Positions 6,001-60,502 of a DNA stretch of 64,000 bases are shown piece after piece. Position numbers and translations under genes: made by a program. The DNA lies in contig CAJINV010000002.1 in assembly GCA_905178155.1 (NCBI GenBank), positions 4,645,709-4,709,708 of the forward strand. The letters are read 5' to 3'. Source of the DNA: Amoebophrya sp. A120 (Eukaryota > Protista > Dinoflagellata). Position 1 is the first letter of the stretch; each line of letters starts with the position of its first letter. The notes under the pieces were generated by a model. It did not search any database. It was not told the DNA's origin and saw nothing but the letters and a program-made list of their open reading frames with translations.

Positions 6001-9000
6001 ATCATCCGCACATAGCAGTTTCCGAACTCGTCCACCAGCTCCACCCAGCCAGATTTTGCCGAATACCCGTGCTTCGCCTTCATCTTCACGATCAACACGT
6101 AAGCGTACCGCCCTTCCACATGTTGAATGATGATTTCGTCGTCGTGGAGCAAATTTCCAATCTTCGGCAGGGTCGCCGCGCCCTCCCACTCCTCCGGATC
6201 GTCCAAATAATTGGAATCTTTGTTCACAAAGTGCTCTGGGTTGTTATTGACATCCCACCGGAATTCCTGAAACCGCTTCACCTGCTCCAGTTTCCCGGTC
6301 TTCCTGTTCCTTTGCTGTTCCGTGTGTCTCAAACAAGACTTTCGGGTCGGGAACAGCTTCATCACGACCGTGAGTCTCGCCCGGAAATCGTTGTTCAAAA
6401 TGATATTCACTTCCTCATCCGAGACGTGGGACCCAAACGGGCACACGCGATACACCACCGCGGAGGGGTCGAGGGAATGGTCCGGATTCGCGTTCTGCGG
6501 AATTTCTCTTCCGTCTTTCATCATCATCAGCTGCGAAAGAGAATCCATCGGCTGGTCGTACGGATTGGGAATCGGCTGTATTTTTGGCTTCTCCTCCGTA
6601 TACAAATGGGCGTTCGACGCTGAACTGCCGCCGGCTTGCTCTTGTGGGACCCCCGGTGGGATGATGTTTGGTGGGAGCTGCTGCTCCTGCGCTGAGTTAC
6701 TACTATTTGGATCAACACGACCAGGACCACGAGACGAGGGGTCGTGCTCAGTTGTGGTCGTCCCCATTTCCACATCGCCTGTATCGTTTTCTTCTTTCGG
6801 TATCGGATTGCCGTCCTCGTCGTACTGTACCTCCTCGTCGTCCACAAAGTCTCCCGGGTGGTCCAGCATTTCGTCAATAATGGACGCGCGGAACATGCCT
6901 TGACTGCTCACCGCTAGCGGCTGGAAAAATCCGACGAAGGGGCAGTAGCCGTGCTGTGGAACCCAGTTTTCGTGCCGATCGTCGTCATCCTCAAACTCGT
7001 CCCTCAAAGAGTACAGCGGCGGACACAACACCCGGCACACGTCGTCCTGATTTTGCCGGTTTTTTCCGTCGTTTGCATTTGTTCCTGGGGGTAGCAGGTC
7101 CGAATTCTGCACCCATTCCACTAACAGCACGCACCCCTTCGTGAATCGGGAGCACGTATGGGATTCTCAACCGTTACATATACATTCTCGCCTGTCACAT
7201 AAATCCGTGATGCAGTAACAGCAAAAGTGAAAGGGGAAACCTTGCGCGTCTTGCATTACAGATCTGGGACGGATTCCTGTGCCATCTAGCGCATCGATAA
7301 GTTGTCATGCGAAGAAGGCTTGATCGTGTGAAAGAAGAGTGATAGCATAGTGATTTTGCATGACAAATCAGGCGACAGTGGAGAATGCAACGTTTGAGAA
7401 TCCCATAGCACGCTTTCTCCGGCTCGAAGGTGCCGTCCTCGAACACCTCCACATCGTTGGTCACAATGTGCAGCTTCCAACCGCTATCCATTGCAAAAGT
7501 ATCTATTCATATCACTGCAGCTTTCTATATCTGGATCAGCACGACAAATTTCACGTTTTTCTTCTGGAAAATTTGTCTTGCAAAAAGTTCTTCCGCAAGT
7601 ACGATACTTTTGCAATGCATAAGCCCCCGACGCCAGCAATTGCTGCATCGTCGCCCGCGTGTCGGTCCAGAGATTTTTCCAATAGGGTTTTTTCCCCGTC
7701 GCCGGTGTCACATCGAACGTCAGCTTCCAATCGCACAACTGCCGCCCGTGGTCCAAAATTTGCATTAACTCGGGTAATGTTTGGAACACCTGGTGTCGGT
7801 CATCGATCCCGCCCAACTCGTGGTAGGGCAGCTCCTCGATCGGCAAGGCCTTCATTCGGAATTTCAGGGCCGCCTTCCGGATTTTGTTCAGATACCCCTT
7901 GGCGAGGGACGACATGACGTTCGCGTCTTCTATCCGGTCCTTAGGGTACTGCAAATCGTACGTGGTCGACACGACTTCCGGATCCGATTCCCAGTAATCC
8001 CTTTTCATGTGCGCGGTTTCAAATTCTTCCTGCCAAAACCTCGCGTTCTCCTCTTCCACCTGCTTGACCGCTATGGCGTTCTCAAATGTTCTTACATTTT
8101 CAACTGTTACATAATTTGCCATGCAAAACCCTCATCAGCATCTAGATTTATCAACCTGCTTCGCATGACAAATTTCCGAAGGGCTAGACAGCATCTAAGT
8201 CTGTAGTACCAAACCTGTATTGCAAGACGCGCAAGGTCACCCCTTTCACTTTCGCCATTCTTGCATTACGAATTCATGTAACAGTTGAGAATGTAACATT
8301 TGAGAACGCCATAGCCGCGTCCTCCGCGTTCTGGATCTTCGCCTCCTGGAGCTTGTCCGCCCCGGATTGCCCGCCGACGCCGCGTCTGCCCTCCACTTTG
8401 TCCGCCATGTCGTCGGACTTTAATTTTTCTTCCTCTTCATTCAACGCGGATAGTTTGGCCATCTCCTCCTGCCGCCGTTGCTCCCACTTGTCGATTATGC
8501 ATTGCAAAAGCATCGTACTAGTATAAATTGCATAACAAATTTTTTCATAAGGAAAAATGGAATTTGTCATGCTGATTCACCTAAAAAAGGATGTTTGTCA
8601 TGCCTGATAGCAATTACTACAAGTACGATACTTTCGCACAGGATATCGATGCGCTTTTGCCTCGATTCCTCCAGATCCTTCCTCGCCAACTCCTCCAATT
8701 TCTGCACCCCGATCTTCCGCTCCTCGCCCCGTCCGGACTTCTATGAATTGCAAAAGTATCGTACTCGTACAAATGCATGACAAATTTTTCCCTCAGAATG
8801 AAAGCTAAAATTTGTAATGCGGATTTAGCAATGCATGATTGCAATTAATACGAGTACGATACTTTTGCACACGATAGCTTCAGCATCTGCTCGATGTTGT
8901 ACAGTTCTCGATCCTTGTTCGTGATGTGCAAGTGCGACCGGTGCTTCCCCTTCTCGTAGGGGAGGGACAGGGTTTTCAGCGTTTTCACGTCCTGAATGAT

Positions 9001-12000
9001 GAATTCCTGGTAGTGATCGTCCGTGACGAGCTCCGCAACCTTCTGCAACTCGTTCGGGGCCAGGCGCATGCGGTCGCCCCACCGGAGGACAAACCCGTCT
9101 TGGACGGTGGGAATCTGCTTCTCGATTTGCGTGGAGGTCGAGTGGGAGGAAACGCTGTTTTGAAGATACATAAGAAGAGCATAATTTTTAGGCTTTTCGT
9201 CATCTACCTCTACGTCACGTCAAACCTCCATTCCTATACCGAGCATTGGGCCCCCGTGCAACATAACAATGACACGCTGCCTAGTACGACTAGCAGCGAC
9301 TTTCAGTTTCAATCCACCGTGCATGGCGAATTAGGGTAATACTTAATATCCGATCCGTATCTACGTGAGTTAAGCCCACGCCCGCAAAAACTACTATCAG
9401 TAGCTTAATCAAAACAAAAACCTGCTTCCTTGTTTTTCCGCCCCCTCCTTGACTATCCGGTCTTGCTGCATCTGCTCCCGGAACAAGGGTTTTCCGTCCG
9501 GCAGCATCAGCGTGACCCAGCCCTCCTCGATCGGCATGCCCGGCAGTTTCGGCACCGTCGTGACCCGGGCGCGAATCCCGGCGACCACGGAAAAAAGAAC
9601 GAGATCCCCACCCCGTAGAAACGCGACGTCTTCTGATTCGATGTCCTGCTCCTCCTGGATCGGCAGCAACACCCGCTCCGGGAAATCCGCGAGGAAAACG
9701 ACGCCCGAAATAGCCGTCCCGCGTTCGTCCAACACCAGATTCTTCACCAGAGGTCGCTTATCCAACGAATACACCTTCGTGTACCCCACCGTGCAGTTCG
9801 CGGGGTCGCAGAGATCCATCAACTCCTTCTATCGTAAGGAAAAATCCCCCCTCCCCATATCGAAACGGTTTCTTTTGAAAATTTGTGATGCTGATCTGTG
9901 CCCGCAAATCAGGTCTGTCTTGCAAGAGAGCCAAGCCAGGGCTTCCGCCGCTTTCTTACGCGGGGGATTTGTAACGCCGCTGCGCAAACAGGGCAGACGT
10001 CTGCCATGCTGAGCGCCCACCTCTAGCCAGCTTCTTCCGGGCTTTGTATCTGCCTGCACCTGCAGTTCTCTACTGCAAGACAAAGCTGATTTGTATACAC
10101 ACATCCCGCATCACAGATTGCCATTTTTATATGGGGAGGGGTGATTTTTCCTTTCGATACCTTCGACGCGTACACATTCTCCTTCGTGGGGATTTGCGGC
10201 AGCAAGATTTTCGCCACCCCGGTCTCCGGATTCAGTTCCGTCAGCACGATAATTCTGCCCTGCTTCACCAAGCGGGTTGGCGTTACGTTCTCGTCCATGA
10301 CCGCCCCCTCCGGTGGGAGGCGACCCTCCCGCCTGGCCCGCCTCTCCGCGATCTCCCGCTTGTTCATGCGCTCCCCCGGGAGTTTCAGCGAGTAGTCGTC
10401 TGTCTTTTTGTTCCGGATGGGTTTGTCAAACACCTTATGCATTGCAAAAGTATTGCACTAGTTGTAGTTGTAGTTGTAGAAATTGCAATACAAAAATTCA
10501 TCTCCAGCGATTAGTAATGCTGACTCACCAAAAAAGAAAATTTTATGAAGATGCTGTACAACTGCAAGTGTAGTACGAACGCGATAGTATCGAACTTTTG
10601 CAGGGGATACACCTCCAATTGCCAGGACTCGTCCTTTGCGACCCCCTCGCTGGCCTCGCCGACGATGCCCAAGTGCCAGGTCTGGGAAATCAGCAAGTCC
10701 TCCAAACCCCCGTCGTGCAACACCTCCCGCAGATCCCAGGTCGCCCGGACCGCACTCCCCGGGTTCAAGTAGTAGGTCCGGTTCCAAATCACGTCTCGCG
10801 CCTCCCGCCAACCGCCGGTGACGGTTTCCCGCTGGATAATCACCATGTTGTTCGCGTGCACGGCGGTCTCGTATTGAAAATCGCTCTTGTACACACGCTG
10901 CTTCGGATCCTGCTCGTACTCGGGGATGTTCTGCCGCTCCAACTCGGCTTCCTTCTGCATTTCCATGATCTGCTTCCGCGTAAAGCCGCTGTACTTCGTT
11001 TGCTTCGCGATCATCTCCGCTTGCGACAGGTTCCGGTCCGCGTTCGCCGCGTCTTGCGCTTTTTTCTCGGCCGCGAGTTTCATGTCGATCTCGGATTTCA
11101 ACGCGGTTCGCGCCATGTCTTTCTTTGATTGTTCCACTTCGGACAAAGGCAAAATCTTCGAAAACAGGGCTTCGCCCGTCTCGAACAGAACGAGAGAGAC
11201 CCACCCGCCGCGAAAGAAATTATCCGCCTCGATGTCAATCACCGATAACTTCGCGACGCGCGCGTCGCCGAGATCCAGTTCCTCATCGTAGTCCGGGTTG
11301 TCCACTTCGGTATAAACGTGCGCGATCTGCGCTCGGGACCCCACGATTTGGAGGAAGGACAGCTGCGTGTTGGGCTGGAGCCGGCCGAGAACGCGGCTGT
11401 GGTGGAAATCCCGGGATTCCGTGACCAGCACGCACCCGTCTTCCGTGATCCCCGGCACGTCCTTCAGCTCCGCAAGGTAACTGTACTTGTTCGCACCTCT
11501 TTTTGGCTTTGCAGGTTTCACTCTCGCTGCAGAGGAAGCAGCTCCTCCAGCACCAGCGCCGGCTGCACCTCCAAAGTGCTTTTCCTGAAACACCTTGTTC
11601 CGTGCCTTCGCCGTCATGGTCACCGATCCCTGGTCATCGTCCTCGAACTCGGACAAGGACACCCTCCTGGCCGTCCCCAACTGCATCCGTTCTTTCGGAC
11701 TTGTCGGTGAGTCAAATTGGTCGGGAAATGCGATGTCCGCCAAGTCCTCCGGCTTCGGCTCCCAGCCGACCACCCGGCCCCACCGGGAACGCAACGCGTT
11801 CTCGTGCAGATCCTCCGTCGGGACGTAGTTCAGCATGCGGCCCATCCGCCCGATCCGGATCGGCGGGTCGTTCAGCGGGAGGCGGTCGACCGTGTGTAAA
11901 GAGAGTGAGCTCACGGCAGGTTTATTGTTTTCCTCTTCCTCTCCCTCGTTATTGTTCCTCCCGCCGCCTTTGCTCGTCGACTTGAACCGGACCCCTGGTC

Positions 12001-15000
12001 CGAGCTCCATGATCTGGGTCGACATCAGCTGTCCGGTTTCGGGTTCGGCAACCTTTCCCGTTTTCCACGGGTGGCTGAACTTCCACGCTTCGAGCACGGA
12101 GTTCATCATTTCCAGTTCCCGGAGGGAATACGTCACATCCGTCGAGGTCTTGTTGTCCTTCTGCAGCCGCTTCAGCCGCCTTTTTTCCGCGTTCGGGTCA
12201 CCGAACCCAACTTCGCCGGGCAACGGGATCAACTTCGCCCTCTTCCGGTTCCGCTCCTTGTCCCAAAACTCGCTACTCGCGTTGGCCCAGTCCTTCCGGT
12301 CCGGCGACTCCATTTGGCTGGTTAAAAACAGCGACTCGGTGCCCGACCCCCGCTTCTGGTTCCACTGCCCCTGCAGCGCCGCCTGGTCGCCGGAATCGAC
12401 GGCCCTTTCGGTCAGGATTTCTTCCAGAGAAAGCCCCTGCTCCCCGACCTGCGCGACCGTAGCGAGGTGGTGCGCTTTATCCTGAGTAAAAACGTCCCCG
12501 CCCCATAGTCAAGTTGCGAACTCTGCAACACAAATCCAGGAGTTTTGGAAGCCATGCATGACAAGTTCGTCTGTGGAGTGTGGTGAGCGTGAGTGTTAGC
12601 AAAGACAGTCGCATGACAAACCCATCTTCTCATCCTGTTTACAGCATTGGCATTGCAAATGGCAAAACACGACTGGAAATGCATCTCATGTAGATGCGCA
12701 TTACAAATGTTCCTGTCATTGCAAATCCGCATGACAACTCTGGGGTGGGGACGTTTTTGCTCAGGATACGCTTGCTCCAACCGCCGGAAGTCCATCCGCC
12801 GCCGGTTCGGGGACAGCGGGTCCACCTTGTTCGGGGGGCCCCGCCAGATGTTCATCTGCGACTCCTCCGTCAGGCCGTGGTGGTTCGGGTCCACCGGATC
12901 GTGGTAAATGTCCCGACGGGCTTCCAGTTCGTGGTAGGACCGCCGGTCCGGGGACTTGTTCAGCATCGGAAGCACCAACCGCTCCTTCTCCTCGCGCTTC
13001 GCCTTGATCGCCATCTGCATCTTGTCGAACCTGGAGGAGTTTATTTTTCAATATTTCTTTGTTTGTTTCATCTTCGCTCCTAATTGCCAATATTACCCTG
13101 GCATGCTGGTCGACGTGTTCTGTCCGGAGACTCAACAGTGAGATCCACGCAGCGTTGGAAGGCGCAACTGCTCTAAGCGAGTCGCTGCTATCAGCAAGCA
13201 GGCCAAGCGAATTTTAGAATAGTAGCACAGATTCGTATTTCTGTAGAGAGAGCCGCAGCTAGCTATGCGTATGCCGCCAGCTAGCGAAAGCGAATTTCAA
13301 CATTTGAAGGAGCCTTAGACTTTGTAGAAGATGAAGATTGTGAGAAGGTTTAAAGATGCTCTGCTTCACAGGACGATGTCGAAGCAAGCACGTTGCGAAC
13401 CTTCTATTTCACTTTTCTCCTGCTTGGAACCTTGGAAGGCACGGGAAAGCAAGCCTCCCAAGGAAAGTAATGAGGAGGTAGGTACTATGAGCTGCTCGAT
13501 TATTTTTTTGGTACGAATATGAAGATCCGTTTCCATCTACGCGAGAGCGTAGTTCGTGTTGTGAAGGAACAAGTGGAACTATTTTATCAGCTTGATCTTG
13601 ATGAAAATTAGTTAACTTCCAAACATCAGAATTCAGAATCAGATGGTGATAAAAAAAACGCAAATAAAAATCTGCACCATGTCAGCTGATTTTTGATCCG
13701 CCACTCCTCTTCCAGCCGCTCCCGCTCAAACCGCGCTGCCTCGTCCTTCGCCCGCTGCGTATCATGTGCAAAAATATCGCACTCGACTGGAAAAGCTCGC
13801 AATTTTGCATCACGAATGCAAATCTGGTTTCCAAGCAATTTCAGCACTTTTACAAATTGAAATTCCACTTTTCAAGGAAGAAGCAGAAAAAGTTTCAGTT
13901 TGCAAACGCAATTACTACCAGTACGATAGTTTTGCAATGCATACTGCGCCCTTCGCGCCAACTTTTCTTCCCTTCTCTTCTTCTTCGCGGCCTTTTCTGC
14001 CGCACGCTGTTGCCTCTTTTCCTTTCGCCGCTGCTTTTTCATCTCCTCTTTCTGCCGCTCCTTCTCCTCCAACTCGAGCCGTTCCCGTATTCTTTGTAAA
14101 CACGTCATCACACCTTCATTGTCATGCATATGTAAATCTGCATGCCAAGATCATCTCTACTCGCGCGGCTCACCATGAGGAGAGCCATTTTCTCATCCTA
14201 ATAGGATGAAAGTGAAACTTGATTTGTAGTGCGGCTCCTGGACTCTAGCTACACACGAATGTAGTTGCCCTGCAAAATATCCAAGCGCCTGGGTTTGCGT
14301 TTCTTTGTCGTCGAAACAGAGTTCGCATCACTTAAAAACTATGGGGTGGTGACGTAGTACTAGTTTTCACTGCGGATATTCCTTTCCTTGTAGTCACTGT
14401 CATCCGAGTCCACATCGGATTCCGTGCCTTGAGCAGCTTTCGCGAGCTCTTCCTGCTCCTCCTCGAGAAGATCTTCTTCATCGAAATCTTCCTCTTCGTC
14501 CGTAGAACTGGCATCCGGATCGAACTCCGACAATTCCGAAGACTCGTTCGCCTTTTCTTCCTCGAGTTTTCGCAGCCTTTCCTGCTCGAGCCGCTCCGCT
14601 TCCTGCTGTTGCCGCAGCTGCTCGGCGGCTTCCTCCACCTCCTGCTGCGTGTAGACGCCGGAGAAGGGAATGATGGGGCCCGTGAAGGACTTTGGCTGTT
14701 CTTGTTTTTTGTTCGTATAATTTGCGTTTGTTGCTTTTTGTCTGTTTGCACGATGACAGTTTTTGTTTTTCATGGTATTTCAGAAAAATAGGCACATTTA
14801 CATGCTGGAAGAAGAGCAATTCCTCTACTGTCAATCTTCTTCGAGATGAAGCCGTCATCAAACACAGTAGGAGGACGAAGAAGTAGTACTCTTTTCCCAA
14901 ACTATACTCACTTACCGGCCCTGGCCTGCAGACGTGCTCGTTTTCCACGACCTTCAAGAATTCTCCATCGGGCATTTGCACCAGCGAGAGCTCCCTCAAA

Positions 15001-18000
15001 ATTGTGCGCAACCGCCGCACCGCGTGATGCGTGTCGAATTCCTCATCGGACTTGCCAATGACGAGGATCCCCAGAGACGCCAATTCTCCGAGTTCGTTGT
15101 CGGTCGCGTACACCGGATTGTCAAACGCATCTATGAAGCCCGGAAACGTGTCCCCCCGGCCGTAAAACCCCAACTGCTTGATCTCGGAATTCTTATGAAG
15201 ATCGCGCCCGGAGGGCGATATTGGTAACCAAATGCGTGCGCGAAAATCTAACCAGCGCGAAAGCCAAACCAGCCGCCACCATTTCTTTTAATTAGAATCC
15301 CACTTCTTCTTCTTGGGTCGCGGGCTCCACCACTTCCCCGCGGCCCTAAAGGGCCACGGACAACTACTGTCGCCCGCGGCGGCCCGCAGGCTCCTGCGAT
15401 AAGCATTGAAGGCGAAATCCGGTCTGCTATTTCGCAGCGGGGCATCCTTTCTAGCCCCCTGCGTGACAAACTGGCCTCCTGGCCAAGAAGGTATGTGGCC
15501 ATCCACCTTCGCGACGGGGCATCCTTTCTAGCCCCCTGCATGACAAACTGGCCTCCTGGCCAAGAAGGTATGCGGAAAGCCGAATCTCCGCGGTCCCTTC
15601 CGGGCCACCAAAATCGGGCAATTCAGACGCGGCGGAGGTGCAGGATTTGTGCCCACAAACCAGGGCAAATGGGGGCTTTGTGACATCCCTCCGCCCGCTT
15701 CTAGTGCGTTTTTTTTTTTCACAATCCCGAAACTATGGCGCGACCACGCGCCCGCCGGACCGCCCTTGGTGGCCAGTTTGTAAGCCTGCCGAGGGTTCTC
15801 GACTTTCGCCCATTTCGCCTTTTTTTTCAAGTTTCTAGGTGGCCGAAGGGCTCTGGACATTTTCACCGCCCGCAGCTGACTGGCAGTCTTGGAGCCTGGA
15901 GGGGGACTGCGGTTTTGCGCAATTTTTCACTTTTTTCTGGTTTTGAAGTGGCCCGGGCGATCTGCACATTTTCCCCGCCCCCACCTGGGTGGCAGTTTTG
16001 AAGCCTGCGGAGGGATTGCGCTTTTGCAAGATTTTTCTTCTTTTCCCATTTTCCAAGTGGCCCGGGTGATCTGGACAAAATCCGACGATTGCTTCCACCC
16101 ACGTTATGAAGCAACTTTTTGCCATTTTTTTCCAATTTTTTCCAGTTACGAAGCGGCCCAAGGCTTCCGGACAGGTCGCGGGCCTGCTTCTCCAACGCAG
16201 CTGCCCAGCGGGCGAAGCAAAAAGTACTCCGTCTTTTTTTCAGATACTAAGTGGGCCAAGCCGCAAAAGTGCTCTTTTTCCACCTTCTCCCGCTTGGTTT
16301 CTGCCGTTTTTGCGACATTTTTGACCTCCTGGCCATTTTCCCATCTGATCCACTTTTTTTCCCTTCTCCCGCTTCATTTCTGGCCATTTCCCTGACCTTC
16401 ACGCCTCCCGGCGGTTGCCCTATATGGTAACGGCAACTGCCTTCGCGCTGCGTTTGCTAAGCAATATCGCAAGCGCGCAGAGCGCGCGCGCCGGCTTCGT
16501 GGGCCGGCGCGCGCTCTGCGCGCGCGCGCGCACGCATTTGGTTACCAGATCAGCATCTTCTTGCTGTGTTCCCGCAGCGCCTTTTTTGTTCACCACCTTC
16601 GCGCCCCGCGTGATCGTGCTCGGACGGGGTAGAGCCGTGCGGAAGCGGTTCCCCTGGGAATTTTCCAGGGCTTCTCGTGGGATGCTGGTGTTCAGTTCGG
16701 TCGGTAGGACCAAAAACGACCCCTCGTCGTTAAAATGGTGCTCGATTTCGTGCAGCTTATCTCCGTAGGCTTCTTCAAACTGGTACACCAGGACAAACGG
16801 CTCGTCGGTCGGTCGTTTTGTCCCCTTCAAAAAACACCGCACCGCGGCGGCGCCGAGTTTCCGTCTCCGCGTGTGGTGATTCGTCATCTGCAGCTTCGCA
16901 TAATTCTTCTTGTCCCTATGCACTGCAAAAGTAACACATTGAGTTTGAGTCGTATCGCACTATGAATTGCGTTGAAATTTGATCAAGTAAGATGAAAGAT
17001 CGCTCACAACGTGCGATTTCCAATGCCTTCTACATACTACGACCACAGTGCGACTTTTGCAAAGGATAGTCTCTTTCGGCCCGCGACTGGTACCAACCCC
17101 CGCGCCGAACCAAATTTTCCGACCGGTTTTGCGTGCACACGTAGTACCGGGCTTCGGGCTCCAAGTAGGCGACAACCTGTATTTGACGTTATTGTAGCGA
17201 ACATCAGAACTGTAGCACGCAACAGAAAAAGCAGCAGGCCGCCGGCTACTACAACCAAAAGAGCGGGACCAGTATGCGGACATATTACAACAGGCAACCT
17301 GTTTATTGCTGGACCACAAATAGATGAAGGTAGTACGTTGTAGGGGTCATTCGGGTCGATTTTATCGCCAACGCGATTCATCATAGAATCGATCCGTCGC
17401 ATCGAGCTCTCCGGGTCGATTCCAGCGTCGTCCATCATCGCCTCTCTCCTGTCGTTCCGAACCCCAATTATCGGCCGCAAGTAGCTCAATTCCGAGCCTT
17501 CCCCAATTTTCGCGTACACGAATTTCCGCGGGTTCAAGGGATTGACGATCTGGGCGATTTGGATGCCCTTTTTGCTGTCGAACTGGGTCCGAATCACGAC
17601 CAGCACGGATCCCTTCTCCACGATATCAAAATGAAAAATCCCCCCTCCCCATATTGAAGCGGAAACTTCTGCTGCTGGATTTGTGTACACAAATCAGCCC
17701 TGTCTTGCAGCGAGGCACTACAGGCAAAGCCTCAGCCTGCGTAGGGGTGTTTTGTTGTAGGCGCTTGGCATAAGAGAGGCCGGCCATGTAGGTGAAGCAG
17801 CATTACAAATCGCCTCCATAAGGCGGCGGATTCTTTGCGTTTGCCTTCTTGCAAGACAGATGTGATTTGTGACCTCAAATCCGCAACACAAATTTTTGGA
17901 AACATACCTTTTCGATATGGGGAGGGGAGATTTTTCCTCTCAATACACGAACCCGCAGGACTTGCCCGCACACTTGCTGTTGTCATACAGGTCCGTATCC

Positions 18001-46200: not shown

Positions 46201-49200
46201 GACGAAGGACAGGAGAATCCTCGCTTCAAAGAGCGACTGCGCGACGTCTGTGGTGGCCTCGAGATTCGCCTCCTCCACGAAGCTGTCGACGTCCTCGATG
46301 CACTTTGCGAGCTGTTTCATATCAAAGGGAAAAATCCCCCCTCCCCATATCGAAATGGAAATCTGCCATGCGGGATACGTGTACACAAATCGGCCTTGTC
46401 TTGCAGTAAAGGAGTACAGGCGGATACCAAACCGGAGCAGGGGCGTTTTGGTGTAGCCGTCTAGCAAGGCCGGTATATCCTCCGTAGGCCGTATAGCATT
46501 ACAAATTCCCTGCAGGACCAGGACGCGCCAAGGTTTTTGGATTTGCCTTCTTGCAATACAGCGACGGTTTGTGGTCTCAAAACAGCATCACAAATTTTCA
46601 GAAGTATCCCGGTCTGCGTCTGGTATGGGGAGGGGGGATTTTTCCTCGCAATACTTCACGGTCTTTACCAACACCATCTCGAACAAGTCGCGCGCCCACT
46701 CGATGCAATGGTCGGGCAGGTGAGGAAAGTTGCGCAGCGTGCACATGGGAATGCCGCCGCCCTGGGCACTGTTCATGTAGATCAGTTGGGTCGTTAACAT
46801 TTTACTTTTAGGGCGTACTTTAATAGAGATGTAAATCAGGGAAAATGTTGGTAGAAGACAAGAATAAATGCTGGCAACAGTAGAGTGAGAGGACACGACA
46901 AACACATCAAGACAAAACACAAACAGACAACTCGGCGAAAAAAGATATACGCCTGCCCGCCGTCCCTGTAGGTTTTCGTGATGAACGGCACCACGGGATC
47001 CACGTTTCCGCTCGGTCCCATGGTACCGGATTCCAAAAGCGGTTTTTCGTACTTGCAGCACTGGTCGTCCACGTAAAGTCTGGCCTCCATGTTGTCCAGG
47101 GCGTTGACGACCAGGTCCAAATCCATCCAAAACTTGTCGTCAAACTCTTCCTCGGTGGATTTGCCAACGAACATCTCCAGGGACCGGATGTTCAATTCGT
47201 TTTTGCCTCCCGCTTTCTTCTGCCACCTTGACATCTTCTTCGCCATCTCGCCGGCCGCGACCGACTTTGGCTGCCCCACGTTGTGCTCGCGGAATAGAAA
47301 CTGCCGCGCCAAGTTCGACAACTCGATTCGATCCGCGTCCGTCACGGTCAACTTTCCTTTTGGTTGATGTTCTTGTTTTCCAACTTCACTACTGGAAGTC
47401 GTTGGACTACTATCCGGAGGACAGCAAATCCCATTCAACGCGAAGTTCTTCAGCAACTCACACCCAAGCGCCCCGCAGCCGACCATGAAGAGCTTGAGAT
47501 TCTGCAGTTTGGCGATAAACTGCTTTCCGTACAGCGCTTCCAGGTCGCCGTACCTGGATTCGTCGATCTCGCTTTGGGATTTGGGCAAGTCGGTCGGCTT
47601 CTTCTCGCTGTCCGGAAGCGCTTCCCGGGCGTGGAAATGCAGGAAGCCCGGGATGGGGGTAAACTTGCCCGTGATCTGTGTAGTGGTTTTTTCTCTTTTA
47701 TAGTCTCCATGATTATTATTCTGCATCTGCGTCGATTTCTTTGCTCCAGGTACCTCGTCTACCGAAACAAGATAGAGCCAAGAAGCTTGCGAGGACCGCT
47801 TCTAGTTGCTTCGTAGTTTTGCAAGGCATCCAATTATTTCTGAAATAATCATACCTTCACTGCCTCCTGTCCCAGCACCCCGCCGAGAAATGCGGACAAG
47901 GGCTGCAGTTCGATGTTGGATTGCCGTACGTACTCGTACACGAGGTCCTCGTTGACTTCTATGTCCAAGTCCAGCTTCTTCCCCTCGCCGGACAGCAGCT
48001 GCTTCGCCTTTTCCACGATTTTTTCCTTCGGCATTTCGGGTAGGAGATACTTCTCTTCCGGCTTTGAGTACAGAACGGTGGCCATGCCGATATCCTGTGC
48101 AAAAGTATCGTACTCGTACTAATCGATGTCATGCATTACAAATCCCTTTCTTTGGGCTTGGGGGAATCCGCATTACAAATTCCATTTCTAATGCTGAGGG
48201 AATTTGTGATGCTACTTATACTAGTACGATACTTTTGCAGTGCATAGCCGAGGTGGACCTGCAACTCCGAGCCGAAGTCCAGCATGTCCGTGCCCGTCAT
48301 GTCCATGAAGGGAATGCCCGGGTTTGCCAGTTTCGCGGAAAATGGATGCGAGGGAACGTGTTCGTTTACCTGGATTTACCGATTTTTAAATGTATAGGGC
48401 GAAGGAACCTATGTACGTAGCAGGGGTGCGCGTCATGTTGCAATATGATTGAACGTCGGGATGCACAAGCGTTCATGTGCCGCTGCGAACAAGAACAAGA
48501 AGTCATTTCTGCTGCATAATTATACAGCGAAGAAATTTATTTTCCCTGATAGTTATTTCAACAACGCATAATCATACCTTCTTTTCCGTCAATGTTCCTC
48601 CTTTCACATACTCCCCCTCGTATTCCATCGTACTCCCGACCAACCGCAATGAGTTCGACGGGTCCCCTATCCTGAGTAAAAACGTACCCACACCAGAGTC
48701 AGGATGGGGAATCTGCTAGACAAATCAGCCAGCTTTGGTTGTTTGGCATGACAGGTTTGTCCGCGTAGTGTAGTGCTGTTTGAGCTAGTTTAGCAGCATT
48801 ACAGATCTAGTATCTCGTGCTGATTGGAGCATGACAAATTTCAAAACCGCACTAGAAAATCTCTCATGGGGCTCCGCATGAGAAACATTTTAAGCATGCA
48901 GAGTTGCATGACAACTATGGTGTGGGTACGTTTTTACTCAGGATATCCCCGGATTTTTGCGTCGTTTTCCAGCAGTTGATATCAAATGCAAAAATGTCTG
49001 GGTCTGGAAGAATGCAACTTGTAATGCGTATCTCAGAACACAGAAAAGTCTCTCATGCATACGTACCGAAAGCTGCCCACTTTCTGTCAGCAAAATAGGA
49101 GACTTCTCATGCGGATTCGGCATTGCGGAAGCTTCTCGAAACCTGTGATGCTAAAATTTCCATGAGAGACCTTCTGTGTCATGCAAAAACAGCATGACTC

Positions 49201-50031
49201 TTCCAGACCCAGACATTTTTACATTTGATAGTTGACGAGCTTTTCTACTCGCCCGTTCGGGAGTTTCAGTTCCTCCGTGTGCTTCTCTATCCCCTTCAAC
49301 CCGACAATGTCCCCGGAGGAAAGCTCGATGTAGCTGTTTTCCGGGAAGGTTTCCGGCTTCTGCCCCTCAGGCACGGAAAACCGGACCAGGGGGTCTTGGT
49401 CCGCTTTCTCGATGGACTCAATGATCCGCACCAGGGGGTTTTCGCCGTTTTTGTCGTTTACCAAGTGGTCGTCGCCGTGGTCCGCAAAAATGGTGGCGAA
49501 CACGCCATTCGACCGGGCGTAGAGGAAGGAAATCTTGTTCTTGCGGCAGAATTCGTTGTAACTTTTCAATTCTTCAAAACGGAAGCTGCTGTCGGTGATG
49601 ATCATCACGGAGAATTTGTTCTCCAAAACTGCCTTTTCGGACAAAGTTGTTACATCTGGCAGTCCCCCGGCGATCTTGCACAACGGGTTCAGCTCCTGTA
49701 ATCTCGGTGGAATTACGTCGTGCTTCTTCTTTCCGATGTCTTCCTGCTGGAGAAAAAAATTCACGCCCAAGTCCTTCGGCTTCACGATACTATCGTCGAA
49801 AATCGTCAGACCGCCGCATCCTTGTAAAACCAAATTCTTGCAGGTCTCGATCCCGACCCCGTTTCCGCCGCCGACAACGAGAATCTTCAACTTTGTCATT
49901 TTCAGCGTCGTTTCCGCACCGAAGGCCGCGTTCTGCCGGGAAAACTTATCCAGGAACTTCTGCTCGTTCTCATCCTGCGCGGGAACTGCCGCGGCGGCGG
50001 TAGTTGTAGAAGTACCGTTGGGGGCCGTCAT
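43230..50031 (-). CDS. UBA1: Ubiquitin-activating enzyme E1; nine TIR introners plus about four canonical introns
   Basis: DKFSRQ, GKFTPI, FMVGCGALGCELLKNFAL, DADRIELSNLARQFLFR, NALDNMEARLYVD, LLESGTMG, catalytic IPMCTLRNFP, DFEKDDDFNFHI, KLIAGRIIPAIATTTA. Confidence 0.95.
43588..43737. mobile_element. TIR introner, family A (in UBA1)
   Basis: Ends tatgaactgcaaaag / cttttgcacaggata; repeat agttc; removal gives EWRN-CKATG. Confidence 0.92.
44076..44310. mobile_element. TIR introner, family C (in UBA1)
   Basis: TIR tatggcgttctcaaacgttacattctca / tgagaatgtaacatttgagaacgccata; repeat ttggt. Confidence 0.92.
44420..44744. mobile_element. TIR introner, family F (in UBA1)
   Basis: TIR core gtcaggatcgaaatcgacaaagttgaa / ttcaactttgtcgatttcgatcctgac; TAT..ATA ends; repeat gttcg; removal gives AYPN-PHSVWDKL. 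Confidence 0.93.
44792..45073. mobile_element. TIR introner, family E (in UBA1)
   Basis: Ends tatcctctgcaaaaacatccccacccc / ggggtgcggacgtttttccttaggata; repeat cttga; removal gives GKIK-EEFF. Confidence 0.9.
45967..46119. mobile_element. TIR introner, family A (in UBA1)
   Basis: Ends tatgcattgcaaaactatcgtact / agtacgatacttttgcacgagata; repeat aatct; removal gives FRDKI-KDLV. Confidence 0.92.
46320..46653. mobile_element. TIR introner, family D (in UBA1)
   Basis: TIR core ggaaaaatcccccctccccata / tatggggaggggggatttttcc; flanks tttca/cttca; removal gives KTVK-QLAK. Confidence 0.92.
48091..48246. mobile_element. TIR introner, family A (in UBA1)
   Basis: Ends tatcctgtgcaaaagtatcgtact / agtacgatacttttgcagtgcata; repeat gccga. 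Confidence 0.92.
48668..48945. mobile_element. TIR introner, family E (in UBA1)
   Basis: TIR tatcctgagtaaaaacgtacccacacca / tggtgtgggtacgtttttactcaggata; repeat tcccc. Confidence 0.93.
48980..49230. mobile_element. TIR introner, family B (in UBA1)
   Basis: TIR tatcaaatgcaaaaatgtctgggtctggaaga / tcttccagacccagacatttttacatttgata; repeat gttga. Confidence 0.93.
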
Positions 50032-50626: not shown

Positions 50627-50699
50627 GGCTATACGATTGCCATTGCAAAAATGGACCACGATGATCGTGGTCCATTTTTGCAATGGCAATCGTATAGCC
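50627..50699. repeat. Perfect palindrome, 36-bp arms with 1-nt spacer
   Basis: ggctatacgattgccattgcaaaaatggaccacgat g atcgtggtccatttttgcaatggcaatcgtatagcc. Confidence 0.95.
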
Positions 50700-51917: not shown

Positions 51918-52922
51918 CCGCAACGAGGACCCGCTGAGGGGGGGCTACAGCTACGCCGTGGTGCACGACAACGGACAGCTTCTTAGTCAGCTTCTGTTGA
52001 ACTGGCGGAATTCTCGAGGAGCGGTACAGGGCGGGAACTTCCTCAGATGTAGTTGCTGTGCTTATCATATCCTGTGTAAATGGTGCGTGCATTGAACAAT
52101 GCATTCCTGAAATATTTGTTTCATATTCACAAATAAATAGTATATCACACACGACACACTTCATCCGTTCTCATGAGCAGCGCGCTCTTCTGTCACTAAC
52201 CTAGAAGTATTTCGGTCTTACACGTTGACCTGCTCTATCTCGGTAAAACAGCTTACCTCGTCGACGGAGCGGCGCAACACCAAAAATCACGAAATGGAAA
52301 TTTTTCAATCTTTCAGTTTCTTGTGCGAGTATTAACATTCATTTTCATATTTATAGTGTTGTCAGCTGTAGGTACAGTTTTCAGTTTCCAGCTTCCCTTA
52401 CGGTTACCCCCGATGAAGATGAACGGGTTCAAAAAGCATTACTTGCGGCCAATCACTGCCGCGATCCGGATCCGGCTTGGTTGTGTATAAATATTTATAT
52501 GAAGCAGCACATTCGAGCAGCGTCTGGATCCCTTCCTTTTCACGCACGGCGACAGCCGATTATTTAGCGTTTGAGGGCCAAGACCCTTACTGCTTTGCCC
52601 GTAACTGCTCGGCCTGAAGCTTCACAAACTCGGCTGGCGGTACCCAATCGCAGTCAAACTCCTCCGGAGGTATCCGAGTGCACAACTCCCCCACCTCGTC
52701 CCCCTCATTTGAACAAGGGCACGAACAGCAATACAGGAAAGCCACCAAAAATGTAGCCTCGTCCGCATGAAAAATTTCTCTGGGGTATTTATAACGATTG
52801 GTGTGGTCATGCGAACAATGCAGCTTCAAGGCGGCAAGAACGGCAACGTGTGTTGTGGATTTCGAAGCTTTGACGTTCTTTTGCATCACATTCACAAATC
52901 ACAAAGCTAATGAAAAGGAGTA

Positions 52923-55900
52923 CTAGCAGTAGTTGTGCAATCTGATAGGAGGAGCTGGCAATGCAGGAGGAGACGCCGGGGATGCAGGAGGAGACACAAC
53001 CGGGGACGTCGAAGATGTAGCTCCTGCTTTCTTATCACCTTGTGTCTCTACGCCTTCGGCTTTTTCCGCCGTGGTTCCCTGTGCGAACTTTTCCGCGTCA
53101 AAGTGCGCACACGCCTGCTCTCCGAGAAACTCCCGAGGCTGCTTGAAGGGTCCGGGCGTGCCGCTGTCGCCCACCGGGGCCGCCAGGTCCAGGACCGGGT
53201 CCCGGAAGAACTCCATGCGGTGGGCGTCCAGTGCCTCGGTGAGCGGCACGCCCATGCCCCAGAATTCGTCCGCGCGGGACAGAAACCATATCAAATGCAA
53301 AAATGTCTGGGTCTGGAAGATTAAAACTTGTCATGCTAAATCCGAATAATGCAAAAATCTGTGTTGCATGAGTGCCAAAAGCTGTCAACTTTCGACCAAG
53401 TTGGGAGGAAGTTTCTCGCGCGGGATAGGCATGGCAGAGACCTCACAGACTCTGTCATGCTAGGTCCTGCATTCCAGACCTCATGGGTCATGCAAAATAT
53501 GCATGCCAAACCTGGCAACGTTCCAGACTCAGATGACATTTTTGCATTTGATAAACCAAGCCCAGGCGCGACCGGAAACAGCAAACACCGTGCGGCGGAC
53601 GCGCGTCTTCTTGCTCAGAAGCTGGAGAGAAGGATCTTCCGAAGATTCATCACTCGCGCTCGGCCCTTCTTGTGGCGATGGGTTCTTCTTGCTTCTTTTT
53701 GCCGCTCGGGTGCTGCTATCACTTCGCGCACAACTCCCGTCGTCCCGCTTGTTCCCCTTTATTTCTCCAGAAGTACTGGAGGTAGAAGTAGTCCTTGAGT
53801 TAGATGCTTCGGTGGCCTGTTCTCCCAATTCCGGTGCAGATTGTGACCTCCTTGTAAAAAAGAAAGAAGACGATGAGGACGACGGGGTTGCAGCGGTGCT
53901 CGACGCTGGCGCTGCTCCGGGCGGAGCGGTGCTTTTCCTTTCCTGCTTCCGGAGGAGCCGTTTTGTCTCATACGCCGACTTCATTTTCGTTTGGCGGATC
54001 CAAAACACTTTTTCCAGCACGGGCACAACCATTTTTGCGTCCGTGAAACTCAAAAACGCCAGCCGCGGCACGGGGTCCTGGTTGTAGAAGACATTCATAG
54101 TGTTATCAACTGTAAAAATGTCTGGGTCTGGAAGATTGCAACTTGTCATGCTAAATCCGCAGCATGCAAAAATCTGTGTTGCATGATTACCAAAAGTCGT
54201 CCAGTTTTTACCAAGTCTGGAAGTAGTTTCTCATGCAGGATAGGCATTAGAAAGGTCTCGCAGAATCTGCCATGCTAGGTCCTGCATTCCAGACCTCATG
54301 GGTCATGGAAAAGCAGCATGACAAATCGCGTATTCTTCCAGACCAAGACATTTTTGCATTTGATAAGTGTTGGCCATCAACAATTTCTCGGTGTCATCGT
54401 ACTTATCTTGGCCTCCCAAAAATGTAACCGGCGTGCCCGACGGAACTTTTCCGGTGAGCAAATATTCCTGGGCGGGGACCGCCCGATTGCCCTCGGATGA
54501 GTAGATCGGCGGCGCGGAAAACACGATGGTGCGGAACTCTTTGTAGTTCCGAGATGGAAGATCATGCGCTTGTTGCCGCGCACCACGAAGAGATGAAGTA
54601 GATGCAGCACCCGCTCCGGAAGTAGTAGATTGTTCGTACTTTCCGCGGATCAGAAATTTCATCAGCGCCGAGTCGTACCGCAGGCGGTGCAGCACCAGCG
54701 CTTGCGCGCCGCCCAAGCTGTGTCCGGAGACGAGGATGGTTTTGAAGTTTTGCCGCAAGCGTTGCTCCAAGTAAGTTTCAAACTGCTTCCCGAGCTGCCG
54801 GTTTTTGTCGAAAACGTTCCGTGCCAGTTCTTGGAGGTTGTTTGGGTAGAAATGCTGCAGGTTTGCCGGGATGTCCTCGCGATTCGTTTTGATCTGCAAC
54901 TTGGCGGCGAAAATCGACGCGTGGTAGGTTTTTTGTTGGTCATCGAGAAGTTGTGTTTTTTCCTCGTTGTCACCGCAGTGTTCTACTTGCAGTTCTTTCT
55001 GACACTCCTCCCGCAACTTCAGTTCCAGTTCTGCCAATGCCAGGACCACGCGGTCGAAGAACCCCTTGTGCAGTTTCAAGTAGCTCGCCCCGGCGGAGGT
55101 GAAAGATCCGACCACAGTCTTCCAATAGTTTTGCTGCCCCGTCTCGGGATTTTGGGCTTCGGAAAACGAGGTCGTCGCGTCGCTGTACCAGTGGTAGACC
55201 GGACTGTAGTCGTCTCCCGCCGCGTCCACGTTGGTCGCCCAGTCGTCCAGGTAGGCGGTTTTTCCGTCCATCAGCCGGGTCCCGGTGCCGCGAAAGGTCA
55301 GGTTCAAGGTACCCCCGTCCGTGTCGTGCGAGAGGTAGCAGAACCACTGGGGCAGCATCTTTTGGTTGATGTTTTCGTTCTCCGAACCGTCCTCGGACAC
55401 ACCGGCGAGCGCGGGGAGAAAAGGAAGGGTCTTGGGGGCCAGATGGCTGGAAATTTCGTTGGACACATACGCCAAAACTTCCCTGCGCACCGCATCGTTG
55501 TTCAGAACTACATGGTTCACCTGATGTGAATTTTCATTTGTGAACAAGCTGTCTTTTAGTTCTTTTCCGTTTGCATATGCATACGTAAGTACATATTGAT
55601 ATTTATATGTTTTCCTCTTGTACATAGCGTTGCAAAAAAAACAAAATTCCCTTCCTGCTATCGATTCTAGTTTCACTAGTTGAGTTGTACCTCGTCCGGG
55701 TCGACGTAGTCATTTCCCAGATTTCCCAGCTGCCTTCTGAGTCTTTCAGGCGCATTCCGAGCTAGCTTTCGGAGCCACCGCCCAACTTTGAAGTTGTTTT
55801 CTACCAGTTTTTTGAGCACAAGCTGCGAAAGCTTCTCCAGCATGGCCTCCAAGCTTGTGACGTAGCGGTGCTGGGAAATCTTCTTTTCGCCGAAGAGGAT

Positions 55901-56839
55901 CAAATTTTTTTCGGGAAAAACAGTGGATTTGGATCTGTCATCCGTCCACGCGGAGCCAAAAAACCACCAACCATCCTGCTGCAGATTCTCAAACTCCTTT
56001 TCCAACTTAGCTTTTGACTCCCGGATTTCTTTTGACGTCTTGGTTCCGTCCGCGAGCGACTCAGTCCTGGAAGCCGCAAGTCGGGATAAAAAACCTGAGC
56101 CACGAGCACGACTTTTCCCTTCCAGCAAGATATCCTCCATGACTGTCCCACGGAAAAAGTGTTACAGTTCCACATTTGTTTGTCAATTCAGCAACACAAA
56201 TTTTCTCTGCATGAGAGGGGAAACGTGCAATGCGGAAGCATTTCTGGCATGACAGAGGTTGTCTGTCATGCTGAGCTTGCAAAGCAATGTGTAACTGTAA
56301 CACGTTTTTCTCGTGATAACAACGTACTCGTGCTCGTACGACAATCGGGAATTCTTCCAGGCCTGCCGAAACTCCCGGCGCTTCTTCAGCGAACTGTGAA
56401 TCGGCTGGTGGAGGACGTGTGCGACCGTGACTTCCTCAGCCCGCCGTTCCGCGTCAGCCGCGGCTACCAGTTCCGGGTTCGTTTGTGCATCTGGCTCCGA
56501 ACGACCTGCAGGTGGTGGAGGAGAAGCTAGAACTCCTGCAGCGGCTCCGGCTGCTGCGTCCGCGTCACTCAATAAAGCAGGGCGGCTTGTTTCTAGACCT
56601 GGAGGTTGCCGCGCAGCAGCAGCTGCTGGGCTCTTTGGAGTTGTTGCTGCTCTACTTGGTGCAGCTGCTCCTGCAGAGGTTGTCGTCGCAGTTGTACTAC
56701 TAGTAACCGCCGGCAAAGCCTGACATGATGTTTCAGGATCCGTGTAGGGGCGAAAGAAATGCTCCTCTCCCTGGTTCCACCCAGTAGCCTGGGTCCAAGC
56801 GGTGTTTACCTCGCGACAGAAATCGCAAACGCCAGACAT
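52923..56839 (-). CDS. Class-3 (fungal-type) lipase-domain protein; three introners and one canonical intron (~55521-55690)
   Basis: LTFRGT, DDWATN, LHKGF, nucleophile ILVSGHSLGGAQA, FSAPP, and after introner removal NVFYNQDPVPRL; 3' end approximate. Confidence 0.85.
53289..53553. mobile_element. TIR introner, family B (in lipase)
   Basis: Ends tatcaaatgcaaaaatgtc / gacatttttgcatttgata; repeat aacca; removal gives WAWF-LSRA. Confidence 0.92.
54104..54365. mobile_element. TIR introner, family B (in lipase)
   Basis: Ends tatcaactgtaaaaatgtctgggtctggaaga / tcttccagaccaagacatttttgcatttgata; repeat agtgt; removal gives MANT-MNVFYNQD. Confidence 0.92.
56144..56318. mobile_element. TIR introner, family G (in lipase; inverted relative to 59699 copy)
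   Basis: Ends tgtcccacggaaaaagtgttacagtt / aactgtaacacgtttttctcgtgata; flanks atgac/acaac; removal keeps frame (EYV..EDILL). Confidence 0.85.
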
Positions 56840-59026: not shown

Positions 59027-60502
59027 TTATGAGAGGATCGTCGACGGATCGGGTTCCAGAAAGTAGGTGAGCGGTTGCTTGCCCGAGGGGTCGCTGGAGG
59101 TGAGCACCGAGAGCCGAATCTCCATCTCCGCACCTTGCTCATGGTGGTCAGGATCGCCCGCCGGAGACAGCACGTTTTGGTTGTGAAACAGCAAGGTCCT
59201 CCCGTCTCGGTCCGTCCCCAGGTCCCACTGCTCCGGAGCGGCCGCGTCGAGCTCCCCGGGTGCGTACTTGCAAACCGTCCGCCGCACGTAAAATCGGACC
59301 TTTCCGGTCCGCCGGCAACGGTATGGCACCCCTTCGAAGTATCCCGTGTAAAAACGTTCGCACACCATATTTGTCATGCAAATCTGCATGCTTAAAATGT
59401 TTCTCATGCGGAGCCCCATGAGAAGCATTTTCTAATGGTGTTTTGAAATCTGTCATGCTCCAATCAGCATGAGAGACTCGATCTGTAATGCTGCTGAACT
59501 AGCTCAAACAGCACTACGCTACGCGTCCAAATTTGTCATGCGAAACAGCCAAAGCTTGTGGATTTGTCTAGCCGATTCCCCATCTTGACTATGGGGTGGG
59601 TACGTTTTTACATAGGATACGAAGTCCGTACCCTTCACTGGGTCCGAAACGAACTCCACCAGCCCGTTCGGCTGCTCCACTGGCAGGTCGGGGGTCGCTA
59701 TCATGTGAGAGAAAAGAAAAAGTCACAGTTACTGTTACACATTGCTTTGCAACCTCAACATGACAGACAAGAACCTCTGTCATGCCAGAAATGCTTCCGA
59801 CCTTCATGTCATAAGTAAGTGTTTTCCCTTATGGTCTGCGCATTGCAAGTTATTTTCTCTCCCATTCAGAGAAAATTTGTGTTGCTGAATTGACAACAAA
59901 TGTGTAACTGTAAACACTTTTATTTTCGTGGGATAGTCGCTGAACAGAGCTCTTTGATCGACTTGCCTGTAGCGTCTCCCTCAATTTTGTACAGCTTCTT
60001 CCACTTCTCCTGGTACGCCAGCACCTTGCCGCGTTCCACCGCCGAGAGGACGCATCCGTACTTGTGCATCCAGGCGGTGGACTTCATGAGGTCCCCCAGG
60101 AATTGTGCCTGCGCCTGCTCCACTGACATCGACCACTGCCCGCTCTCCTATGGAAGCGTCAGGTTTGAAATCGTCAAAGTTGAAATAATTTCAATTTGTA
60201 ATGCATAAAATGCGATACAAAAAGTGACTCTATTGCAGAGGACCCACGGGAGGCAGATTTTAGTCCTGGTAAGGGTCAAAAGTTGGACTGCCAACTAGCA
60301 TGACAGAAGGCAGCTCCTTTGCCCTAAACCGCATGACAGACTCGCTTCCGTGACCGGGAAAATTTGTCATGCACCGACTACAAACTGTAAGTCTAACTGG
60401 TATCCGTTTTATGCATGACAAAGTATTTCAACTTTGACGATTTCAAACCTGACACATCCATATCTCCTCCGCATTGTGGATGCTTTTCCCCCCCTTGCCC
60501 AT
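59027..60502 (-). CDS. Hypothetical protein split by three introners; 3' end may lie in a further exon near 58650-58840
   Basis: In-frame reconstruction MGKGGKSIHNAEE-SGQWSMSVEQAQ...ELCSA-TPDLP...KGTDF-EGVPYRCRRTGKVRFY. Confidence 0.7.
59340..59619. mobile_element. TIR introner, family E (inverted relative to 48668 copy)
   Basis: Ends tatcccgtgtaaaaacgttcgcacaccata / tatggggtgggtacgtttttacataggata; repeat cgaag. Confidence 0.92.
59699..59935. mobile_element. TIR introner, family G
   Basis: Ends tatcatgtgagag...gttacacatt / aatgtgtaactgtaaac...cgtgggata; repeat gtcgc. Confidence 0.9.
60149..60462. mobile_element. TIR introner, family F
   Basis: TIR core gtcaggtttgaaatcgtcaaagttgaaata / tatttcaactttgacgatttcaaacctgac; TAT..ATA ends; repeat tctcc. 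Confidence 0.93.

Follow-up and report, generated by a model that had tools for sequence, protein, structure and literature searches.

The 64,000-nt window of the Amoebophrya sp. A120 genome analyzed here (contig CAJINV010000002.1, positions 4,645,709 to 4,709,708) carries 37 introner elements, the short, noncoding inverted-repeat insertions already published for this organism. Families of these elements occupy coding sequence in both orientations; the elements are flanked by 5-nt duplications, are missing as element plus exactly 5 nt at the 12 junctions covered by two annotated proteins, have near-invariant ends, and lie at targets where canonical splice dinucleotides are no more frequent than expected by chance. 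Judging from these sequence features, removal from pre-mRNA is very probably defined by the ends of the element, a TAT...ATA pair closing a long stem, and blind to orientation; the agent is probably the resident spliceosome, with its requirements for G relaxed.

Self-comparison of the window revealed dispersed repeats of 135 to 450 nt that start with TAT, finish with ATA, and are lower in G+C than their flanks. A scan for TAT...ATA ends combined with a 5-nt flanking repeat returned 39 rows, of which 32 were kept and 7, weak or duplicate, were dropped without individual test; a relaxed scan added 2 of its 21 rows, and 3 elements (14088, 56144, and 59699) were delimited by hand, giving the total of 37. 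The boundaries of 14088, 17996, and 62040 are placed with less certainty than the others. The elements have the traits of miniature inverted-repeat transposable elements (MITEs; nonautonomous DNA transposons with terminal inverted repeats [TIRs]), namely TIRs, a target site duplication (TSD) of fixed length, and no coding capacity, and no Rfam family matched the window at the gathering score. Host genes and elements are listed below by window position, elements without strand; in the text, an element is referred to by its first position.

43230..50031, minus strand: UBA1 (ubiquitin-activating enzyme E1); protein of 1300 aa; introns: 9 elements, 4 GT-AG
59027..60541, minus strand: gene without assigned function; protein of 222 aa; element introns: 3 (F, G, E)
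3001..9186, minus strand: leucine-rich-repeat (LRR) gene; 8 elements out gives 1534 open codons; A and C in both orientations
5062..5216: family A, orientation 1; TSD copies differ by 1 base; homologue P0121 gap-free at the junction
7485..7621: family A, orientation 1; TSD copies differ by 2 bases
48091..48246: family A, orientation 1, in UBA1
61754..61947: family A-like, weak link, orientation 1 by core; downstream TSD copy gives an in-frame stop, limiting the cut register
8496..8645: family A, orientation 2
8742..8876: family A, orientation 2
39744..39898: family A, orientation 2
43588..43737: family A, orientation 2, in UBA1
45967..46119: family A, orientation 2, in UBA1
5306..5567: family B (all four copies co-oriented); transcript end ACA
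48980..49230: family B, in UBA1
53289..53553: family B, in a lipase-3-like gene
54104..54365: family B, in the lipase-3-like gene
7157..7407: family C, inverted relative to 8072 and 44076; homologue P0121 gap-free at the junction
8072..8313: family C, in the host gene of 7157, opposite orientation
44076..44310: family C, in UBA1
9830..10159: family D, inverted relative to 17624 and 46320; one of two GT-AG-capable elements
17624..17945: family D
46320..46653: family D, in UBA1; TSD copies differ by 1 base
12478..12768: family E, orientation 1
48668..48945: family E, orientation 1, in UBA1
44792..45073: family E, orientation 2, in UBA1
59340..59619: family E, orientation 2; inverted core 89% identical to 48668
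38225..38676: family F, orientation 1
44420..44744: family F, orientation 1, in UBA1
60149..60462: family F, orientation 2
4780..4988: family G, weak link, orientation 1
56144..56318: family G, orientation 1; transcript end ACA; TSD copies differ by 2 bases; ends set by hand
59699..59935: family G, orientation 2; delimited by hand
10436..10609: TAT...ATA element, A-type ends, core unlinked
13760..13943: TAT...ATA element, A-type ends, core unlinked
16917..17068: TAT...ATA element, A-type ends, core unlinked
14088..14378: decayed TAT...ATA element, single; delimited by hand
17996..18142: single TAT...ATA element; three interior 32-nt repeats
32191..33333: single element of 1143 nt with TAT...ATA ends; 24-bp stem without mismatch; GCAT motif absent from the interior
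52671..52947: single TAT...ATA element, in the lipase-3-like gene
62040..62304: single TAT...ATA element; TSD copies differ by 3 bases

Core comparisons, for which 25 nt were cut from both ends so that the terminal repeats could not drive the scores, placed 29 of the 37 elements into seven families, with zero inconsistent orientation edges in any family graph. An earlier note on this DNA had named inversions in families C, E, G, D, and F, and all five are real. Local scores in the same versus the inverted direction were 23 versus 106 (7157/8072) and 26 versus 129 (7157/44076) for C, 25 versus 110 (56144/59699) for G, 43 versus 128 (9830/17624) and 26 versus 107 (9830/46320) for D, 35 versus 136 (60149/44420) and 42 versus 113 (60149/38225) for F, and 35 versus 331 (48668/59340) for E, with global identity of 55% versus 89% in the last pair. 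The inverted scores thus span 106 to 331 against 23 to 43 in the same direction; shuffled cores (n = 1000) gave a median of 16 and a maximum of 26. Internal palindromy, which the note had named as a refuting outcome, was checked: cores scored 16 to 66 against their own reverse complements, with D and F partly self-complementary (36 to 66) but under their inverted scores. Because these values stay below those of the inverted pairs, palindromy is ruled out as the source of the inversions.

Both orientations were found in six of the seven families (A 4:5, C 1:2, D 1:2, E 2:2, F 2:1, and G 2:1), B (4:0) being the sole one-orientation family; A, with nine linked copies, and B had escaped the earlier note, although its statement that one family is tolerated both ways inside genes is borne out. 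Majority and minority orientations total 19:10 among the 29 linked copies; a 50:50 process predicts 8.8 minority copies (P(≥10) = 0.33), whereas an 80:20 bias is rejected (p = 0.009). The host genes all lie on the minus strand, as had also been stated: each of the 37 elements sits in an open reading frame (ORF) that opens on that strand once the element and 5 nt are cut, and minus-strand coding is independently backed by Pfam matches and by the annotated A120 proteins of UBA1 (P0001) and of the 222-aa gene (P0123).

Removal can be followed most closely in these two genes. Exon 45077-45958 is 100% identical to the 1300-aa UBA1 of Amoebophrya sp. A120, and mapping P0001 onto the window yielded 13 introns, comprising 4 GT-AG introns and 9 elements, with the element plus exactly 5 nt gone at 9/9 element junctions. 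UBA1 carries both orientations of family A (48091 versus 43588 and 45967) and of family E (48668 versus 44792), and each of its element copies would break the frame or add stops. The earlier note held that the excision signal is symmetric and named removal of one orientation only as the finding that would speak against it; the annotated UBA1 protein is without all nine elements, and a symmetric signal is supported because the frame-breaking A and E copies that it lacks are of both orientations. The 222-aa gene hosts the inverted E, G, and F copies that the note had singled out. Its exon 59030-59338 is 100% identical to P0123, and cutting element plus 5 nt produces 222/222 identical residues (3/3 junctions), whereas cutting 2 or 8 nt fails. 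According to the text of Farhat 2021 (PMC7789003), A120 gene models were made from transcript alignments; agreement of the 12 junctions with these transcript-guided annotated proteins is indirect RNA evidence.

Independently of the annotation, UBA1 orthologues, including that of strain A25, have zero gaps at the nine element junctions when 18 of the 120 matches listed are aligned; set against the A25 protein, two of the junctions lie 4 to 8 residues from a gap. For the LRR gene, the protein search returned two distant matches only and not the annotated A120 protein; the homologue P0121 is gap-free at five of its junctions, that of the inverted C copy 7157 included, and four of its elements have mismatched duplications. 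Removal of element plus 2 nt (NT...AN, with one extra codon), at which the published top splice pairs hint, is excluded by P0001, P0123, and the gap-free orthologues. Cutting out the 1143-nt element 32191-33333 opens a frame of 1413 codons, the longest stop-free stretch inside it being 80 codons. This element has no long ORF, contains an inner 88-nt inverted repeat besides its 24-bp terminal stem, and carries its own repeated motif, GGCGGTAAA, in 9 copies, with zero elsewhere in the window. A TIR element of matching length, 1143 bp, appears under A120 fam103 in a supplement of PMC12130899.

The constant features of the elements lie at their ends. TAT opens all 37 and ATA closes 35, so that the triplet is present at 72 of the 74 ends. 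The sole two deviations (5306 and 56144) read TGT on the plus strand and ACA on the transcript, both on the acceptor side. Each of positions 11-14 is A in 27 to 35 of the 37 elements, the A run being shifted or missing in families C and F. Positions 4-8 are often mismatched between the arms, positions 9-14 are predicted to pair on both strands in 32/36 elements, and the outermost three pairs are often separated from the stem by 1 to 4 mismatches. The duplication is exact in 25/37 elements and has 1 to 3 mismatches in 12/37, with the frame still open. The end sites show 2 changes in 222, whereas the TSD copies mismatch each other at 19 positions (Fisher p = 0.005, a conservative count), which suggests that the end triplets are maintained after insertion.

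The target contributes no comparable constraint. With any of the six registers allowed, GT-AG is possible in 2/37 elements, GT/GC/GA-AG in 5/37, and neither GT nor AG in 13/37, compared with 4%, 12%, and 32%, respectively, for random coding targets; canonical splice pairs are thus no commoner than chance, and the target gives no signal. A conserved A at TSD position 3, considered as a co-opted acceptor, was rejected: it occurs in 6/9 UBA1 elements but in 13/34 overall, with G equally frequent.

All six registers inside the duplication yield an identical mRNA, which bears on how published splice-site tables are to be read. In Table S4 of Farhat 2021 (PMC7789003), as far as that source was covered, the nine top A120 splice pairs all have T at +2. 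We simulated random targets with alignments sliding toward GT-AG, under a BLAT-style scoring rule, and compared the outcome with six families of at least 170 members among 21 of the 58 A120 rows in the PMC12130899 supplement. Simulated 5' ends were GT in 26-31%, GC in 5-6%, GA in 5-8%, and AT in 13-15% of cases, and 3' ends AG in 28-33% and AC in 15-24%; the published values in that portion are GT 26-30%, GC 3-6%, GA 4-7%, AT 14-20%, AG 24-34%, and AC 16-19%. Eight of the nine published top pairs fell within the simulated top 12; GA-AG and GG-AG were over-predicted, and a fixed N/TAT register alone (the slash marking the cut) fails to match the published 3' counts. Random 5-nt duplications combined with a sliding aligner therefore largely reproduce the dinucleotide diversity published for A120, and because of this the tables say little about the true cut; nor do they show targets to be selected for GT or AG across the genome. 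They were also dropped as evidence for an N/TAT cut, sliding alone yielding T at +2.

Modest support for the N/TAT register comes from three other sources. The four GT-AG introns of UBA1 begin GTAT, GTAT, GTAT, and GTAC; the window gene finder favors A at donor +3 and fused some genes, and these four are therefore the only independent donors, composition counts also taking in 8 further gene-finder introns. At element 61754, the downstream TSD copy produces a stop unless at least 3 nt of the upstream copy stay exonic, and the exon that follows scores as coding. In strain A25, whose repeat starts with TTA, the nine top pairs all begin with TT, their 3' ends being free (Farhat 2021, PMC7789003, and PMC12130899, both in part).

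The interior of the elements holds a motif, GCAT(G/T/C)A(C/G)A, with 94 copies in elements of all seven families (shuffles, n = 200: mean 1.7, maximum 5) and 14 in the rest of the window; its longer form, GCAT(G/T/C)A(C/G)AAAT, reaches about 10 per kb in elements versus 0.1 per kb in exons, and canonical introns almost lack the motif. Although the copies are balanced overall (48 sense, 46 antisense), individual elements carry them on both strands in 16/37 cases, on the sense strand only in 9, on the antisense strand only in 7, and not at all in 5; within UBA1, sense and antisense copies number 0 and 5 in 48668 and 4 and 0 in 44792. Like-oriented copies are 28 to 35 nt apart in 14/38 gaps, about three helical turns, and the final sense copy lies anywhere from 40 to 174 nt before the 3' end. 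As a branch signal the motif is ruled out by its absence from the sense strand in 12/37 elements and by this variable distance; being carried along by the element, it more likely serves transposition. In addition, none of the 4-, 5-, and 6-mers was biased to the 3' region of the sense strand (373 tests; best p = 0.04). The ends are favored over interior motifs as the seat of the splicing signal because TAT and ATA are near-invariant and the GCAT motif is missing from the sense strand in those 12 elements. Of the two routes by which the earlier note explained a symmetric signal, recognition of the TIR stem is thus the favored one, and the presence of every needed motif on both strands fails beyond the ends.

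In the mechanism we propose, transposase-driven transposition would insert an element either way round. In the transcript, either end would give the same first bases and both ends would pair, and for these reasons a flipped element would keep its signal. Distance from the ends, and not pairing between the two duplications, would set the cut, the 3' one lying about 4 nt beyond ATA, and one copy of the 5-nt duplication would leave together with the element. The catalyst would be the host U2-type spliceosome, N/UAU mimicking the host's own G/UAU donors; A120 keeps U2, U4, U5, U6, and 83 of 89 spliceosomal proteins, with U1 not found, according to the text of Farhat 2021 (PMC7789003). Several points weigh against this reading. 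The sample is one window with 37 elements, and their detection relied on the TAT...ATA ends, so that end conservation is overestimated; the ascertainment is partly offset in UBA1 and P0123, which require no other noncanonical intron. Mismatches between TSD copies may date from insertion and not reflect age. The elements yielded no branch-point candidate. The stem has no signature of selection on the RNA strand, with G-U versus A-C oppositions at 31:20 (p = 0.16) and the sense strand the more stable in 22/36 elements (p = 0.067), and the 3' regions of elements are T-rich, whereas those of canonical introns in the window are A-rich. As for the register, the published T at +2 is unusable, and the constraint from 61754 depends on a single hypothetical gene, of 107 aa, that has no homologue.

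The same symmetric ends could instead be served by a nonspliceosomal, structure-guided nuclease and ligase that removes the hairpin, as proposed for euglenids, a reading we consider unlikely. It would account for G being no commoner than chance at either site and for the lack of a visible branch motif, it fits the much more stable predicted folding of the elements (-0.19 to -0.48 kcal/mol per nt versus -0.10 to -0.25 for canonical introns of the window), and it gains from the failure to detect U1 in A120 (Farhat 2021, PMC7789003, text) and from the exit of euglenid introns as circles (PMC11282704, in the part covered). Yet the invariant TAT equals positions +2 to +4 of host donors, the mismatches that cut off the outermost three pairs indicate that sequence is kept rather than pairing, and the rest of the spliceosome is present, with GT-AG introns in the same genes. 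Alternatively, a protein that binds the element as double-stranded DNA, at its ends or GCAT repeats, could mark it during transcription, and such marking would inherently ignore orientation. The motif's occurrence in all seven families, its strand balance, and its 28-35-nt spacing are in keeping with such marking, but 5/37 elements are without the strict motif, including the 1143-nt element with GGCGGTAAA in its place, and spacings within families are not independent. Subterminal repeats are more simply transposase-binding sites, which also counts against DNA-bound marking, and we regard it as very unlikely.

Even less can be said for ordinary strand-specific interior signals, such as a branch point or enhancer, carried on both strands of each element. 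The overall balance of the GCAT motif and its presence on both strands in 16 elements are what this would predict, whereas the 7 antisense-only and 5 motif-free elements, the one-sided counts of 48668 and 44792, the varying distance to the 3' end, and the near-absence of the motif from canonical introns contradict it, leaving it highly improbable. We give similarly little credence to the absence of RNA splicing, whether through DNA excision, skipping by reverse transcriptase in cDNA, or ribosome bypass between the duplications. Hairpins with short direct repeats are a substrate for reverse-transcription artefacts (PMC8240250, in part), and the 5-nt repeat always contains one whole in-frame codon. 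Nevertheless, such an artefact cannot yield a UBA1 protein across nine frame-breaking inserts, the assembly contains all elements, and the TSD copies differ in 12/37 elements. Ribosome hopping in particular is contradicted because the in-frame codons of the two copies differ nonsynonymously at 7485 (GCT/GGT) and 61754 (TGG/TAG).

The window elements match the A120 introners of Farhat 2021 in organism, TAT repeat with A run, direct repeats, and families. The text of that paper (PMC7789003) describes inverted repeats of 8 to 20 nt with a TAT start, variable bases, and an A run, direct repeats of 3 to 5 nt, 29,850 copies, and blocks of co-oriented genes; it proposes that a hairpin joins the exon ends, gives the splice dinucleotides as variable, and reports that no transposase was found in A120. 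In the window, the elements lie in A120 genes, carry the TAT repeat and a 5-nt direct repeat, and belong to families in 29/37 cases. TIR elements of A120 with integrase-like ORFs are described in Gozashti 2025, in the part covered. The text of Farhat 2021, with figures S19-S25 represented by their legends, makes no mention of element orientation, "orientation" there referring to genes, nor does that text mention the fixed element-plus-5 length, the interior motif, or an effect of the aligner on the dinucleotide table. No statement on element orientation or the GCAT motif was found in the Amoebophrya literature, in a survey that took in 12 of the 14 supplements to PMC12130899 and the bioRxiv text of Roy et al.; the passage of PMC12621601 covered has no A120 orientation data, and the method of PMC9860276 allowed opposite-orientation matches, with no Amoebophrya result in the passages covered. 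The elements and either-orientation introners are already published; within this survey, the orientation detail for A120 is unreported. The surprise implied by the earlier note is accordingly smaller, the elements, the hairpin model, and either-orientation introns elsewhere all being in print.

Introners of Polarella glacialis make introns either way round, as do, by citation, those of Aureococcus anophagefferens (bioRxiv 10.1101/2020.10.14.339549, in the part covered), and this property is common to them and the window elements (6/7 families). The same portion describes canonical or near-canonical GT/GC/GA...AG sites, carried by the element or by a constrained TSD, and an orientation bias; unlike these, the window elements have unconstrained targets, canonical pairs at chance level (5/37 versus 12%), and no bias. 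Nonconventional introns of euglenids (PMC12501133 and PMC11282704, both in part) likewise have noncanonical junctions, paired ends, and TSD-like repeats, and their cut is set by its spacing from a paired terminal motif, as is proposed here. Their signature is N3CDG...CHG N5-6/R, and they form circles, whereas the window elements have the TAT/ATA triplet instead, as read by eye from end logos, and share the juxtaposition of junctions by paired ends through predicted folding only. MITE-derived introns of Fritillaria borealis, as described in passages of PMC11282704, are also of transposon origin with TIRs and a TSD, and are removed there by an altered spliceosome; AG-AC and AG-AT dominate among them, with a preferred exonic sequence before the insert, whereas no target preference was found for the window elements. 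The "symmetric" introns of fungi, in the portion of PMC8469720 considered, are introns on the coding strand only.

How Amoebophrya removes noncanonical introns without a detectable U1 small nuclear RNA is a standing question (Farhat 2021), and removal that is blind to orientation and target confines the signal to about 15-25 nt per end. With no site or direction barred, tens of thousands of copies become possible inside coding sequence. Near-identical copies in opposite orientation (48668/59340, 89%) and mismatched duplications offer natural tests. A stronger version, which we put forward tentatively as a shade less probable than its negation, is that A120 possesses a route that would read only TAT...ATA and the stem, cut at a fixed distance, require no G, and accept any orientation and target, its catalyst being either a spliceosome without U1 or a distinct machine for excising hairpins. 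If so, every insertion among the tens of thousands of copies would be spliced cleanly, and the published diversity of splice sites would be mostly an artefact of alignment that masks a single rule.

Other features of the window deserve mention. The canonical GT-AG introns contain 135 A in 324 nt of their last 30 nt (12 introns) and no pyrimidine tract, A-rich-ended examples being 48577-48370, 47854-47676, 20827-20638, and 22871-22760. A perfect 73-nt palindrome at 50627-50699, intergenic, with TAT...ATA ends and a GCAAAA run but no flanking 5-nt repeat, is either a foldback remnant or an assembly artefact. Three repeats of about 100 nt, spaced 209 nt apart in a low-GC stretch at 24199-24719 with two copies of the GCAT motif, may represent intronic elements, decayed or nested. 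The intergenic stretches 15431-16560 and 51080-51930 are GC-rich, with short repeats and long T or A runs; a GC palindrome lies at 16473-16523, and the 51080-51930 stretch lies between two copies of a 42-nt repeat, at 50899 and 51876. Neighboring minus-strand genes with Pfam matches, at 20348-20987, 22405-22920, 25588-27360, 35673-37328, 54306-55709, and 63041-63727, include ribosomal S19/S15, an MFS transporter, a dual-specificity phosphatase, lipase 3, and a histidine phosphatase. We take 22405-22920 to resemble a cold-shock protein, and 38064-39030 presumably resembles the 6B subunit of cytochrome c oxidase. The window starts with a tandem array of 30-nt units at 4-153.

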